A DNA stretch of 63,666 nt, filler included, from Collodictyon triciliatum (lineage: Eukaryota), in assembly GCA_043381765.1 (NCBI GenBank). It is 8 parts of 8 records of this genome, joined end to end, with 100 filler letters (N's around TTAATTAATTAA, not from the genome) between each part and the next. Parts side by side here need not be neighbours in the genome. Positions count along the whole stretch, not along the records: positions 10,453 to 20,774 come from JBHJMP010002710.1; positions 20,875 to 31,225 come from JBHJMP010002713.1; positions 31,326 to 41,663 come from JBHJMP010002714.1; positions 41,764 to 52,104 come from JBHJMP010002715.1; 4 more parts are not named here. One strand, written 5' to 3'. Position numbers and translations under genes: made by a program. The notes beneath the pieces were generated by a model. It ran no database searches and was not told the DNA's origin. It saw only the letters and a list, made by a program, of their open reading frames with translations. This document shows positions 18,061-49,800 of the stretch, in pieces. The number at the start of each line of letters is the position of its first letter. Position 1 is the first letter of the stretch.

Positions 18061-20514
18061 TTAGGTTTCCAAGTATGTTAAATTCTTTGAAACAGGCGAT
18101 AAAAGGTAACCTTCTGTTGTTCGTGGTGAATATGAATTCATGGATGCATTTAAACATGAGCTGGATTGCCCCGGCATTTTCTTGGCGCGAATATCAATCA
18201 TGCTATTATGTCTTGAGCGGCCTGCCAAATGCAGAAAATAAAATAAAATAAAATAAAATAAAATAAAATAAAATAAAATAAAATAAAATAAAATAAAATA
18301 AAATAAAATAAAATAAAATAAAATAAAATAAAATAAAATAAAATAAAATTAGAAAATAATATAACGAAAGTAAGAATATTAAACATATTTTAAATATCAA
18401 AATTTGTGTGGAAAAATAATATCACGCTTGGTAATTAAATAAGGATGCTCACTCAAGACAGGTCTGTTTGCTGTTGCATTCAACGGACTTTCTGAAGTGC
18501 TCGTGTTTTGGGTATCTTTCTTTGCGAATCTATCGACTGCTATTGGTACTTTGTTAGCATTTTGTGGTGTAGTAGTTCTCTTTGGCGCGTTTTGAGACGT
18601 CTTTGGTCTTGTGGAAGAGGCTGATGAAGGTCGTTGCGCTATACACAAGGGCGTTCATGAATTAGATTGTTTTACTTTGAATCGAACAAAGGGGAAAAAT
18701 GAATTAGATTGTTTTGCCTAATGCCACATTGAAATGCCTCACATTAAAGCATTACAGAGGAGATAGAATGTAATATTAATTGAGTCAAGGGAAAATGATT
18801 CAATAAAGCGTTTTCAGAAAATACGATAACTGCAATGATTATATACGTATTTTGGGTGAATCTATGGACTGTGGGTCTGGCACTTTCATTTGCTTTGGTA
18901 AGGCTAGGGCACTGATGCGGTCTGGTGTAGGTGGTCTCCGTGGTTGGCTGTAGGATATGATTTTTTTTTTTGATTTCTCGAAGTAAAATGCGAAAAGACT
19001 TTCATAGGGTCGCATCACATAGTTCATTCATGACTGTTTAAGTGGAAAGTGTATTCATAAGAATAAAATATTATACTCGAATATCTCTGACTTTTGTGTG
19101 CTTAAAATAGAAGGACTCGGTCTCTAAAAGTTATTCGGTTCATCATTATAGTCTTTCTTTACAGTCATCGAGGAAAATTCATGCAAGAATTCACGTAATA
19201 TTTTAAGTTACTCGAACGGAAAGATTTGAACTCGAAGAGCGCTTCTGAAGTAGCTCATTTGAACGGGCAGGTGCCTGATTTGATTATTCATTTACTATAT
19301 AATTTTCTCTTTATAGTATTACAATATTGCAGCAAAAAATTAATTCCCAAACGAGATTTTGAATTCATAAATGATGGCTCCGAAGGGTATTTTACGGGTG
19401 ATGGAGATGACGGCCTTGACTTCCTATTGGCAAACTCTGTAATTGGCTTCATCATGGAAAATTGCTTCGCATGTATCCTGTTTGGAAAGCAGAAGAAAGA
19501 AAACGTTTAGGTTGCTTGGTTTCTTCGGTAAGAAACTTATCATTATTGATATTGATGTAAACCAACTTATCAAAGTCAACGATCTTGTTTTTTCCCGCAG
19601 TTAGTCGAGCTCGGGATTCATCGCTTTCGCCACCCAATTGGAGGGGCTCAAAGTTAAACTCTGGTGAAACAGTGTAGGATTTCAGATTCATAGCTGTTTG
19701 GGCCACGAGCTCTTGATAAGCTTTTAAATCGATGTCTGGAGGAAATTGAGTTCCGTAATCAGTAAACTTACGATGAAATATTGATATTCTATGAAGTACA
19801 TAAAGCTACACAAATAAATGCAGGGGAATATGAAAATCCATAATCATAATTCACCAATCTCAGAGGAATTCATGTCCCCTGATAAATCCTTTCCTTGTTC
19901 TGCTGAAGAATCTTGCTCCTATAAAGGAAAGAGATAATAATTAAAATGGTCAGTTTTTTTTAATTCTTTTGAAGTCACCATACGCTAATGGTTTGTGACA
20001 TATCACACTCAAGAGGAATAGCTCTCTTCACCAACTTCAAGTGAATTTTCTTCGTCAACAAAACTCCTTGTGAACGAGGCAGCAAACCTGCAGCATCGAT
20101 CCCTCTGAAAGATCGAGAGGAGTTTGTTCAGGGTATTCTACTCCAGATGATTGGGATAATGAAAAGGTGGCACCAAGTCTAAAGGAAGATGAATAGCTAG
20201 GTTGAGGGTTCAGCACACGCCAGCTCTGACAGAAAGGTTAGGGTTGCTACTAAATAGCGAACGATGCGGGGGAATGACGGGGAATAATAAGGATGGCTGG
20301 AAGGAAAAGAAAGGTAAGTCACAATAACCCTGGGCTGTTGGGAAAAGAAGTGCAGTATTCTGTGCTTGCAAGGATGAGTGGCCAACCTGCTTTGCAAGAA
20401 CTCCGGAGTGGCCTGATCAAACGAAACATTCGAAGCGTTCAGCTCTGAATCGAGCGGAATCGCAGTTGCCTGATCGTTGTTGGGAGAGTTGTTTTCGTGT
20501 CGCAAAATGTCCAT
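18061..20514 (-). CDS. Spliced Ser/Pro-rich protein with a NuSAP-like motif
   Basis: Multiple GT-AG-bounded exons. Removing intron 19478-19566 gives VDFDKIHAKQFSMMKPITEFANRK. Last exon ends in TAA at 18061-18063. Confidence 0.55.
18674..18698 (+). mobile_element. 25-nt micro-retroposon insert with 17-bp TSD
   Basis: ACTTTGAATCGAACAAAGGGGAAAA flanked by ATGAATTAGATTGTTTT at 18657-18673 and 18699-18715. Confidence 0.85.
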
Positions 20515-21113
20515 CCTTCTCGAGTGCGTGTGTTGTGTTCTCAGCTGTCTTTTTAGATGAATCCGTTTAAATAACAGAGGCGAGTAGTTTTCATCTTTCC
20601 TTTTTCTTTTTTCTTTTTTTCTTTTTTCTTTTTTCTTTTTTTCTTTTTTCTTTTTTCTTTTTTCTTTTTTCTTTTTTCTTTTTTCTTTTTTCTTTTTTCT
20701 TTTTTCTTTTTTCATTTTTCATTTTTCATTTTCTCTTTTCTTCTTTTCTTCTTTTCTTCTGTTTTTTTCTTTTTNNNNNNNNNNNNNNNNNNNNNNNNNN
20801 NNNNNNNNNNNNNNNNNNTTAATTAATTAANNNNNNNNNNNNNNNNNNNNNNNNNNNNNNNNNNNNNNNNNNNNTTTTCTCTTTTTCTCTTTTTCTCTTT
20901 TTCTCTTTTTCTCTTTTTCTCTTTTTCTCTTTTTCTCTTTTTCTCTTTTTCTCTTTTTCTCTTTTTCTCTTTTTCTCTTATTCATATTTCCGTGATTATG
21001 ATGGCATGTTCTGTCACCGCTCGTATTTCTACATAGTCAGCATCACCAAATCCATTCAAGTAATTTCCTATGTCCCCAGTGATTTCTGATTCCATCTCTC
21101 TTTTGGATTGTAG

Positions 21114-46800: not shown

Positions 46801-49800
46801 TAAGTCTATTTGAACCTTCGTTTACAAAGCTGAGAATTTACCTCTTATTTTAGACTACTGAATACATCGCAACTATATACAAAATAGAATGTCGGTCGCT
46901 ATTGAAGTCTCTAATTTGGGGATTGAAGTCTGTAACGATGGGGCTATTTAACGGGTTTTCAAATGTGAGTTTCACATTTAACCCTTTGATGAATTACTCA
47001 TGTATCACATTAGTGGAGTTTATATTTTTTTCATATTCGCAATTACACTTTTTTTATACTCATGCCATCTCAAAGCCCGCAAGTCTCTCTGGTAGCACAA
47101 AGCAACCCTTGTCAGCCGAGGAGAGCTCGATTTTATCTCGCCTTTTTGTGCATGGCTTGAAGTGTCTGAGCCTTTACACTTTGAATGATAAAACAACGCC
47201 TCCCAGTGAAGAGAAGGAGGTTGCTATTATTAATAATTATGAAATGGGAAAAAACGATGAATTCGATTTATGCTTTTTTTAAAAAATTTTTTTATTATGT
47301 TTGAGTTATAGCATGGTTTGATTTTACACTTTACCCATATTCTTTCTTATTGGGGCAAATATTTTCGAAATCAAATCTAGATTTTGGAACCTTTTTCTGG
47401 TATCTATACTATGATTGATGTTAGGACATTTCAAGACATAATGAATCAACATATCGGCTACCTATTTAATATCTTGCTCGAGAATCAAACGATGCTGCTC
47501 GTTCCCCAGCACATCGTAACAATACAAACCGTTTCCAAAAATTTCGTTGAAATCTTGCTGAACTATTTGGTCGATAATTTGAAGTATATTTCTTTTTCTA
47601 TTTCCTTTTTCTTTTACACGAATTTTTAAAAAGAAGTCTTGGAAAAATTGAATTGATATATTTATATTTAACGGTATGTCACTTTACTTGTGCAATAGGC
47701 TTCTTGATACTTCAGATAAGATTCAGTCAGGGGTAGTTTTACGTCTGTTTAAATTGGTATTCAGCTCAGTAGCGCTTTGTTCTGAGAATGAGTCAATACT
47801 CCAACAGCACTTGAATACAATCATTATCGGGAGTTTGAATAATAGCGCAGAAGTTAAGGTTGATACACCTCAGTTTGCTTTATATATTGGCGAATTTAGT
47901 CGAAGATTTCTCCTTCTTCTGAAGGAATTCTAGAGGAAGAATGTGCCACTGAAACAGTTAAACTTACCACAGGACCCGACCAATTATTTCCAACTTTTAA
48001 GGACTTTTTTCAGAAGCACAGGGAGCAATCCACTAGATAATCTGCTCAAAGAATTCATCCCTTTGTTACCAAGTATTTTTTTTTCATATACAACCTTTCA
48101 CGAGCCAACTCTTATCACATATTGAACTTTTTTTTCCTTCATTCGATTCAAAGATCTCATATTGAACTATACATGTACTCATTTAATATGATGCTATTTT
48201 TAGCTTTCTTGGAGAGCCTCAATCGACTCCATATGACTGTTCAACAACCCGCACTGAAGCACTTGATTGTTGAGCTGTGTCTTACTGTCCCTGTGCGATT
48301 GAGCAATTTGCTTCCATACCTCCAGTACATAATGAAACCGCTCGTTGCAGCTCTAGAGACAGAAAATGATTTGGTAACTTCACAATCGCTACCGGATAAA
48401 AAAAAAAAAGAGAGACAATATTCCTTTTTTTTTTTTCCATTCAATATACACGTTATTGGTATTACTCAGTAAATATATAGAAGAATAAAATATGTTTTCA
48501 CTCTATCTTACATACGCAAATTAGGCTCTCCAAGGCCTCCGTACCTTGGAGCTTTTCATAGATAATATCGAGGCGAAATATTTGGAACCATACATCCAGC
48601 CAGTCCAAGCTGAGCTAATGACTGCACTATGGAAACACCTTCGTCCAGAACATCATCACCTGTACCGTCAAGTTTTTTCAATTCTTGGAAAGTGGGGAGG
48701 ATATAACAGACAATTTTTGAAGGAATTCCTCGTAATGGTACGAATTAAGCACGAAAACAAAGCCAATATCATTGGATGATTTACCATATATTTACTTGTT
48801 TATGTGCTTTACTAATTCGCTTTTGGATGTAGTTTAATTTGTTTGTATTACACTTTAGACTAATTTCAATAATGGAAGGGTTGCTGATACCACACTTTCT
48901 TATTTCTATCTCCCATAGCCCTATAAGTCCACTGCGGAAAATTACATGAATTTCCAAATGACATTCATCCAGCCCAATTCCACGGTTACGATGGCTGTCG
49001 ATAGACTTGCTGAAACAGCACAGGAAGTACTTTTAAAGGACGGTGTTGATATATATTTCAAGGTATGGTTTAATTCTTCTTCTACCAAACCATTTCGAAC
49101 AAGACATCGCCTAGCCTTTTGCAGAAAAAATCAGTGGAAAACTAGTGTCGCATTTTTTTCGTATTGATAAAATGAAAAAGATGAATTGAAAACATCGTAC
49201 CTCAATGTCAGAGACAAGCTGTCACGTTTATTATATCGGCAATATCTTCAGCAGTTAATTTTTCTGGGGACCCGACTGTAATAGGGTAGATTTCATATTG
49301 CTTAAAACTCAGTTAACTACTATACTAGTTCTCGTAGGTACATAAGTGATGTCCTAAAAAAAATTCCACAATACTACGTAGCTTGCACTCACCCGAGCTT
49401 ATGGATACCAGCGACAGGAAATTCAACCCAGCTATGCATATTATCACTAGTCCTACAGAACAGCAAGATATATATAAACCAAAAAAGCTGAGTCCAAATC
49501 AAAGGGCATCTTTGGTCAGACTCATCTCATCACTTATCCAGTCGTCAGAAACAGAGCTTCAGGTAATACATAGAGGAAATATTAAAAATACAATATTATT
49601 AGGATTAATATTCATCTAGACTATTTAACTCAGACTCACAAACTCTGCCTCCTTTTTTTCTTCTCTCTAATACAGAATGAGGTCGTGCCCTTCCTAGAAA
49701 ACCTGACCCGTCACTTTGTTTTAATCGCTGTTTCTCGAGAAAATGAAAAATATCCAAGGCAGTATAAGGTACTTTTTTCCCTCCTTTCTTATAGCTGATA

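Follow-up and report, generated by a model that had tools for sequence, protein, structure and literature searches.

Short intron inserts in Collodictyon triciliatum that probably derive from the 3' end of an L1-like LINE

The window analysed here is a 63,666-nt stretch of the genome of Collodictyon triciliatum, a freshwater protist related to Diphylleia (CRuMs) (GCA_043381765.1), made of eight scaffold pieces joined through N44-TTAATTAATTAA-N44 linkers. Its genes include one with exons matching the Tra1_central profile and one encoding a Sec7-type ArfGEF, and both host copies of a short dispersed insert built on the core CTTTGAATCGAAYRAAGG (Table 1). Seven core matches were obtained at ≤2 mismatches against 0.05 expected (100 shuffles, none reaching seven), and six at ≤3 mismatches against 0.00 expected when four tail A's were appended to the core. 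The five copies described in an earlier, sequence-only reading of this DNA were all borne out, as was its density near 1 per 10 kb, which corresponds to 6-7 copies in 61,178 non-N bases and applies to the window only. The survey of the window covered ~61 kb of non-N sequence with 4-5 informative copies.

Table 1. Core matches and a neighbouring short insert in the window (positions along the window; TSD, target-site duplication).
Copy	Position	Strand	Core match position	Anatomy	TSD positions	TSD identity
A	18674-18698	+	18675	25 nt: one added A, the 18-nt core (C at position 13), GGAAAA	18657-18673 and 18699-18715	17/17 bp, perfect
B	22273-22297	-	22280	25 nt: consensus core and A7	22298-22312 and 22258-22272	15/15 bp, perfect
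C	48129-48153	-	48136	25 nt: core with G at position 14, and A7	48154-48168 and 48114-48128	14/15 bp, 1 mismatch
D	36840-36883	-	36864	44 nt: GC filler, core with AA replacing GG, A13-G-A4-G9-AT tail	36884-36894 and 36829-36839	11/11 bp, perfect
E	38138-38175	+	38150	38 nt: 12 nt extra 5' (second parent type), core variant with CCTTG, A8	38121-38137 and 38176-38192	17/17 bp, perfect
F	about 143-336	-	145	longer, GC-richer element ending in core variant CCTTGTATCGAATAAAGG
G	11826-11850	-	11833	degenerate 25-nt unit, core with 2 mismatches, several A-to-G changes in 3' half and tail
68-nt insert	40866-40933			68 nt with A-tail		16 bp

Mutually unrelated TSDs of 11-17 bp flank five of the seven core matches, copies A-E, whereas F and G have no clear TSD. 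A-tails of A4-A8 directly adjoin the downstream duplication in copies A, B, C and E; the tail of copy D is irregular and G-rich, and the target site of that copy is itself a core-like sequence. Re-deriving the anatomy of A-E reproduced exactly what had been reported earlier, namely three 25-nt inserts among the five flanked by TSDs (A, B and C) and four starts within 0-2 nt of the same C; the direct repeats said to be peculiar to each copy likewise held, at 17, 15, 15 (with one mismatch), 11 and 17 bp. Intron sites in four genes on four scaffolds had been described; copies A-E are spread over four scaffold pieces in both orientations, and D and E share the one ArfGEF gene. Intron placement is supported for copy E by splicing in contigs (joint 38110>38269, GT..AG), for copy C by its position between consecutive exons that align to positions 453-491 and 500-545 of the Tra1_central profile, for copy D by its position between the DCB and HUS exons, and for copy A by a gap with GT..AG borders that separates two ORFs on the minus strand. 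No contig bridging the site of copy E was found among the contigs listed, and neither empty sites nor polymorphic insertions were observed. Copies in sense orientation carry AATAAA and an A-run.

The two remaining matches differ from this pattern and from each other. Copy G, flanked by a 5-nt repeat only, is probably an old member of the 25-nt family, since only 0.05 core matches are expected by chance. Copy F sits within a TATTAC-type microsatellite without a clean TSD and has 33 nt in common with copy E, of which about 14 nt precede the core and are absent from the LINE 3' end described below; the loose ends of contigs from two sequencing runs (X3 and X5) run on into F-like upstream sequence. 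Copy F represents a second, longer parent type, a LINE 3'UTR or similar. The two kinds of 3' end, otherwise unrelated, have only their last 18 nt in common. This stretch is a conserved 3'-terminal module, and its upstream edge coincides exactly with the start of the short copies.

A parent, an APE-RT LINE ending in the core as the sequence-only reading had predicted, was found in a single 1157-nt metagenome contig (L006). The contig carries a frameshifted ORF, covering the C-terminal region only, with a Pfam zf-RVT match (E 1.5e-7; 32.4 bits, cut-off 27.5), followed by a 3'UTR of ~77 nt, after which the sequence reads ...TACA, the exact consensus core, A10 and an AT-rich flank. Because only the C-terminal region is present, the endonuclease and reverse transcriptase of the element are deduced from relatives: the C-termini of four phmmer relatives of about 1230 aa (P0142-P0145) align with the ORF, Exo_endo_phos and RVT_1 are present in 4/4 of them, and zf-RVT, below its cut-off, in 3/4. 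The window itself contains no LINE coding sequence detectable by tblastx with the contig. The inserts are colinear with the LINE 3' end and combine A-tails with TSDs of variable length, in agreement with the target-primed reverse transcription by LINE machinery proposed earlier. Since the LINE terminus is the core followed by A10, the inserts can therefore be read as products of target-primed reverse transcription that retain only the 18 terminal nt of an L1-like LINE, their start being fixed by the 18-nt module, a reading to which we assign a probability of roughly 0.7. In this scheme, an L1-like element coding for APE endonuclease, reverse transcriptase and zf-RVT would nick intron DNA, begin synthesis at the short A-tail that ends its RNA and copy the last 18 nt alone; the TSDs would arise as the cDNA is joined to a second nick, staggered by 11-17 bp, and the products would be dead on arrival as retrocopies. 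A MITE or other DNA-transposon footprint was rejected: the ends, CTTTG... and ...AAAAAAA, form no inverted termini, and the TSD length varies (11-17 bp) rather than being fixed.

An adapter or primer remnant, an amplification chimera or a mis-assembly would be a concern for a window that concatenates short scaffolds, and genomes of this protist group have been obtained from amplified single cells (10.64898/2026.06.11.730069). Such an origin is scarcely credible. Each of copies A-E lies within a precise host duplication of its own (11-17 bp), contigs of four other independent runs carry the element with different flanks (the copy E sequence appears there as a depth spike with differing flanks in four runs), and in the unrelated metagenome contig it follows a LINE ORF. 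The occurrence of the element in independent data sets and in other sequence contexts speaks against an origin in adapters or assembly errors.

The mechanism itself is ordinary; what is unusual is that nearly all copies share one start base. All four CTTTG-type copies, four of the five in the TSD-flanked set, begin at 0 to -2 relative to the same C, with junction fillers of 1-2 bases (A in copy A, GC in copy D), and no microhomology that would explain the insert junctions was found in the TSD-flanked copies. Random 5' truncation of LINE tails, with the common start a small-sample or detection effect, deserves consideration because the informative copies number only 4-5, the search motif is blind to copies with less than about 16 nt of core, and longer forms exist (E, F and the LINE contig). 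A separate scan for [AG]AAGG+A>=4, for which 5 nt of core and the tail suffice, returned 47 matches in the window, among which TSDs that are not of low complexity flank copies A, B, C and E only. The shared 5' end is thus not a product of censoring, given that the 47 tails include no shorter TSD-flanked form. Every exponential length model tested gave a joint probability of <= about 7e-6, a value uncorrected for the post hoc choice of a 3-nt window. Smooth truncation is a bad fit and the 5' end is non-random, as had been supposed earlier, which leaves random truncation improbable.

Scanning the window for TSDs with A-tails around inserts of up to 1200 nt recovered, outside microsatellites, the core copies and one other family only, a 68-nt insert represented by a single copy in the window. 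The parent of this insert is abundant in contigs of other runs, where it continues further 5'. With its 16-bp TSD, it indicates that the same machinery yields other very short inserts and, like processed pseudogenes and short trans retrocopies, it exemplifies the same kind of event on another RNA. Unlike this single-copy insert, the core family is recurrent and has a fixed start.

We infer that the 5' end is determined by the module itself, and two routes to such an end have to be weighed. The likeliest, which we favour tentatively, is that the template consists of the module and a short A-run; the reverse transcriptase would bind or protect this 3' piece of the LINE RNA and copy it in full. 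Such a template would account for the uniform 25-nt length and for the one or two extra bases seen at two of the junctions. Nearly as likely, and possible in its own right, is a hard stop of the reverse transcriptase, whereby a full-length LINE RNA serves as template and the enzyme reproducibly pauses or dissociates after copying 18 nt, at the module's upstream boundary, owing to a bound protein, a modification or the local sequence, the aborted cDNA then being end-joined. The sharp 5' end combined with a 3' end common to the parent LINE is compatible with such a stop, the fillers (A; GC) and the absent microhomology agree with end-joining, and the length of the other family's insert, only 68 nt, hints at low processivity. 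Against a stop, folding shows no stable structure at that point or upstream of it (MFE 0 to -2.7 kcal/mol for the short copies); copy E, of the other parent type, extends 12 nt beyond that point, and the identical 25-nt total, with A7 in both B and C, is left unexplained.

The copies had originally been labelled stem-loops and a minimal SINE, and neither description survived. Folding gave minimum free energies of 0 (B, the consensus 25-mer), -2.7 (A) and -0.3 kcal/mol (C), with z-scores against shuffles of +0.78, -0.96 and +0.72, none better than shuffled sequence; a 5-bp helix could form in 91% of cells, with 0 pairs changed on both sides and an identical shuffle control, and the folding z-score at the 3' end of the LINE contig is about 0. 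No tRNA-like element, ribozyme or structure able to set a template end or a reverse transcriptase stop was found, nor any tRNA or Rfam family in the window.

LINEs of the L1 superfamily encode an APE endonuclease, a reverse transcriptase and a C-terminal zinc-binding domain, and leave A-tailed, 5'-truncated copies flanked by TSDs of variable length. The inserts resemble truncated L1 copies in their A-rich tails, unrelated 11-17 bp TSDs, insertion in both orientations, intron sites and colinearity with a LINE 3' end. They differ in that only 18 nt are copied, that 4/4 CTTTG-type copies start at one base instead of being scattered, and that the A-tails are short and nearly uniform, at 7-8. In 'stringent' LINEs, known from work on eel UnaL2, a conserved 3' stem-loop is common to the LINE and its partner SINE. 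The module is comparable to these 3' recognition elements as a short terminal block kept between two different 3' ends, and the 18-nt block appears sufficient, judging from the copies, for retro-copying; unlike them, it has no supported stem-loop and its tail is an A-run and not a short tandem repeat.

As SINEBase describes them, SINEs have a pol III internal promoter and a head derived from tRNA, 7SL or 5S RNA, and the 175 known families catalogued there span 75-662 nt without tail (PMC3531059). By that definition the inserts are not SINEs, having no pol III-type head and measuring 18 nt against this range, although the 3' region of a partner LINE, which SINEs may carry, is present, the core being identical to the LINE terminus. 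They share with the LINE-tailed SINEs of the same source a non-autonomous nature, a 3' end in common with a LINE and a discrete 5' end, and differ from them in the missing head and the 18-nt length, for which a LINE RNA fragment is the simplest reading. A self-standing, tail-only 'micro-SINE' that has its own transcribed source loci and borrows the LINE reverse transcriptase through the 18-nt module would fit the discrete 5' end and uniform 25 nt, and the presence of the module on two LINE-type 3' ends; the variant bases at core positions 13 and 14 could then mean several source copies. These variants adjoin well-preserved TSDs (A perfect, C with one mismatch), yet core divergence (5/90) is not significantly greater than TSD divergence (1/75; Fisher p = 0.22), so that multiple source variants are not established. 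A pol III internal promoter cannot fit in 18 nt, no head resembling tRNA, 5S or 7SL RNA turned up, the window showed no candidate source locus, and the length falls far from that of the SINEs listed in SINEBase (PMC3531059), all of which makes a micro-SINE highly improbable.

A literature search found no paper on the mobile elements of Diphyllatea (CRuMs), which appear undescribed. Should the fixed start fail genome-wide, they would be only very short LINE tails; should it hold, the 18 nt would mark the minimal RNA that is recognised and copied by an L1-like reverse transcriptase. A stronger proposition, which we consider rather unlikely, is that a discrete ~25-nt RNA (the 18-nt module and A7) is by itself all the template that target-primed reverse transcription needs in this deep-branching CRuMs eukaryote. 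If true, it would be the smallest recurrent retroposon unit known, ~4x shorter than the shortest catalogued SINE, and would give a direct read-out of the minimal cis-requirement of that enzyme, and the occurrence of one module on two unrelated 3' ends could reflect template jumping from the mini-RNA onto other RNAs. Inserts of 25 nt are missed by repeat finders and, at about 1 per 10 kb, would be a hidden contributor to intron length change; they would also be suitable as clean presence/absence markers for cryptic diphyllatean clades.

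The 18-nt core shared by the short inserts recurs in the window far more often than expected, with seven matches at up to two mismatches against 0.05 expected, and six matches at up to three mismatches against 0.00 expected for the core followed by four tail A's. Five of the copies (A-E) are inserts flanked by target-site duplications (TSDs), so the recurring core with individual TSDs described in the sequence-only reading is real; that the family is an artefact is hardly credible. Copies A, B and C are made up of the core and seven tail bases, with copy A starting one base earlier and carrying a GG before its tail A's. 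Copy D has a two-base GC filler and an odd tail (A13-G-A4-G9-AT), the 5' start of copy E lies 12 nt further upstream, and copy G looks like an old 25-nt copy.

Inserts with a core or a TSD-flanked A-tail in the window
Feature	Position	Strand	Description
Copy A	18674-18698	+	25-nt insert, TSD 17/17
Copy B	22273-22297	-	25-nt insert, TSD 15/15
Copy C	48129-48153	-	25-nt insert, TSD 14/15
Copy D	36840-36883	-	44-nt insert, TSD 11/11
Copy E	38138-38175	+	38-nt insert, TSD 17/17
Copy F	core 145-162, element ~143-336	-	longer, GC-richer element within a microsatellite
Copy G	11826-11850	-	25-nt unit with several A-to-G changes, flanking repeat of just 5 nt
Other insert	40866-40933	+	68 nt, A-tail, perfect 16-bp TSD (40850-40865, 40934-40949), unrelated to the core

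The differences of copy G from the consensus are mostly A-to-G changes, concentrated in its 3' half and tail, and could stem from decay, errors of the reverse transcriptase (RT) or editing of the template RNA. Extra G runs occur in the tails of copy A (GG within 18693-18696, directly after the core GG) and copy D (G9 at 36842-36850, after an A-rich stretch), a hint of slippage or of variant tails in the source. The site targeted by copy D (36884-36902, minus strand; CTTTGAAC + TATCGAAAAAC) is itself core-like; copy D may have inserted in or beside an older degenerate core copy, or the resemblance may be due to chance. The first base of the TSD is A in five of six inserts and the preceding base C or T in all six, too weak a signal of endonuclease target preference given the AT-rich introns. 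Divergence of the core and of the TSDs did not differ significantly (p = 0.22).

A single scan of JGI metagenome contigs with a pattern of 21 specified positions returned 11 loci, two duplicate pairs among them, only one of which, contig L006, is relevant. The other ten are chance matches, GC-diverse and mostly in coding, prokaryote-like sequence, without the CT prefix, a long A-run or a TSD; all loci from the scans of prokaryote genomes (six) and viruses (one) are likewise chance matches. The minus strand of the 1157-nt L006 bears an open frame of 202 aa that scores above the cut-off for Pfam zf-RVT (E = 1.5e-7), a second open frame continuing past a frameshift, and a 3' end composed of a ~77-nt 3'UTR, ...TACA, the exact consensus core, A10 and an AT-rich flank. 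A word-indexed protein search found no long relatives of the open frame; an exhaustive phmmer search recovered 14 relatives, four of them ~1230 aa long and aligning to the query at their C-termini. Exo_endo_phos and RVT_1 domains are present in all four, and zf-RVT, under its cut-off, in three. The APE-RT LINE with the core at its 3' end, proposed as a possible source of the inserts, has thus been found, as a single metagenome contig together with these relatives; in the window itself, tblastx detected no LINE coding sequence. A degenerate second core-like block (CTTTGTATGGCATAA; ~132-157, minus strand), resembling the GTATCG variant of copy F, lies in the L006 3'UTR ~25 nt upstream of the true core, a sequence arrangement which suggests that the terminal module may be tandemly duplicated there.

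In APE-type LINEs, one strand is nicked, synthesis is primed on the RNA tail, and a staggered second nick leaves TSDs of variable length. Target-primed reverse transcription (TPRT) by LINE machinery, as originally suggested for the inserts, is supported by their TSD and A-tail anatomy and by colinearity with the LINE 3' terminus; the core interpretation is supported, and the short inserts are 5'-truncated LINE copies in mechanism. The feature that sets them apart from such copies is their fixed 18-nt extent. The CTTTG-type copies, four in all, have their starts at 0, 0, -1 and -2; the extra A of copy A is possibly templated, because L006 has an A at -1, and the GC filler of copy D fully matches neither parent. 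As a check for censoring by the search motif, the window was searched for every [AG]AAGG with four or more A's after it. Among the 47 matches, non-low-complexity flanking repeats were found for copies A, B, C and E only, one further match had an 8-nt repeat at a distance of 69 nt, no more than chance would give, and the remainder were repeat-less or in microsatellites; no copy with its start within the core was seen. With exponential length models (scales from 3 to 1000 nt), four starts falling within a single 3-nt window in the absence of shorter copies had a joint probability of ~7e-6 at most, and the true probability is one to two orders of magnitude larger, because the 3-nt window was picked after seeing the data. 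Smooth truncation does not fit, even after allowing for this post hoc choice, and random 5' truncation is improbable. The claim of a non-random shared 5' end withstood this analysis, and within this sample, the small size of which is the main weakness, the fixed start is real. Microhomology at the junctions was considered and rejected: at most 1 nt is shared between the TSD ends and the L006 bases that precede the core.

Copies E and F, both with the CCTTG variant of the core, have ~14 nt upstream of it in common, and the corresponding L006 sequence is unrelated to theirs; therefore, two different 3' ends share only their last 18 nt. Loose ends of contigs from two of the independent runs matching the window (three at 38137 in X3 and one at 38146 in X5) run on into sequence resembling the upstream part of copy F. 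The edge of the shared 18-nt block coincides with the start point of all four CTTTG-type short copies, and we infer that the copy start is set by a conserved terminal module. In the slightly favoured reading, to which we assign a probability of roughly 40%, a short 3' fragment (the module and a short A-run, perhaps an RT-held part) would be the sole template. This reading fits because copies A, B, C and possibly G are all 25 nt long, the tail is near-constant at ~7, and filler bases stand at two junctions. That RT instead stops at the module edge while copying full-length RNA is only a little less likely. L006 contains no tRNA-like element, Rfam family or ribozyme that could fix the 5' end of the copies.

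The sequence-only reading had described the inserts as stem-loop elements. A 5-bp helix can be drawn (C1-G17 through G5-U13) and is formable in 91% of cells; no pair changed on both sides, however, and the shuffle control equalled the observed values. The predicted folding energies (0, -2.7, -0.3 and -4.0 kcal/mol for copies B, A, C and E, respectively) are all within the shuffle range, and for the L006 3' end, too, the predicted fold is no more stable than those of shuffled versions (z = 0.09). The stem-loop label and the hairpin-based interpretation are thus unsupported and should be dropped. The same applies to 'minimal SINE': by the definition in PMC3531059, SINEs require pol III transcription from an internal promoter, and the 175 families of SINEBase measure 75-662 nt without the tail. 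The short inserts fall outside this definition, and a micro-SINE transcribed on its own is a very remote prospect. Nor are they MITEs, since inverted termini are absent and TSD length varies. The literature searched, which excluded subscription papers and supplements, held no precedent for fixed-length ultra-short LINE tails and no description of diphyllatean retroelements, which is weak evidence of absence in both cases.

The placement of the copies in introns was confirmed for copy E by a spliced contig joint (38110>38269) and is well supported for copy C, between positions 491 and 500 of the Tra1_central profile, and for copy D, between the DCB and HUS exons of the gene also holding copy E; for copy A, in a GT..AG gap flanked by minus-strand ORFs, it is plausible. 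None of the contigs listed for 37495-41560 bridges site E, and in the same interval fifteen GT..AG introns (79-210 nt) are spliced out in contigs of run X1.

The window DNA is eukaryotic and comprises 61,178 non-N bases in eight scaffold pieces, five of them ~10.3 kb each, joined by N44-TTAATTAATTAA-N44 (10353-10452, 20775-20874, 31226-31325, 41664-41763, 52105-52204, 57023-57122 and 62530-62629). Because the window concatenates short scaffolds, distances across linkers are meaningless. Nearly every piece ends in a microsatellite. Recognised genes encode a CAMK-type kinase, PP2C, an LRR protein, a dynein heavy chain N-terminus, a RING protein, Tra1/TRRAP and a Sec7-type ArfGEF; two Diphylleia rotans proteins in EukProt match the kinase ORF at 84-87% identity, with the others among the matches listed at or below ~46%, and the host is therefore related to the diphyllateans (CRuMs). 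Parts of the region are contained in freshwater and subsurface metagenome runs. The interval 26000-28000 has a GC content of 59% (~35% elsewhere), long open frames that overlap, and low-complexity coding sequence rich in Pro, Ser and Gln, adjoined by a RING-finger exon. A 240-aa open frame at 42350-43072 (plus strand) is 35-61% identical to metagenome proteins of 420-670 aa with precomputed PF26935 and PF07282 annotations, one of which matched a Cas12f1-like TNB domain just under the cut-off in a profile scan; the frame is a TnpB/Fanzor-like gene fragment on a protist scaffold.

A scan of the window for perfect direct repeats (10 bp or longer) enclosing up to 1200 nt that end in at least five A's yielded 21 rows, of which 17 fall within a single A-rich microsatellite (5953-6400) and were disregarded. 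Copies B, C and E account for three rows, copies A and D being missed by the tail rule, and one is the unrelated 68-nt insert, which is intronic (joint 40826>40990). Its sequence reaches a summed depth of 373-869 in contigs of runs X1 and X3, as against ~3-12 on exons, and its parent in these contigs extends upstream of it with consistent sequence, the parent's own end lying at a later poly(A) site. The insert probably represents the tail of another abundant element or transcript (LINE, SINE or mRNA). This genome therefore possesses TPRT-type machinery by which other very short inserts are left too.
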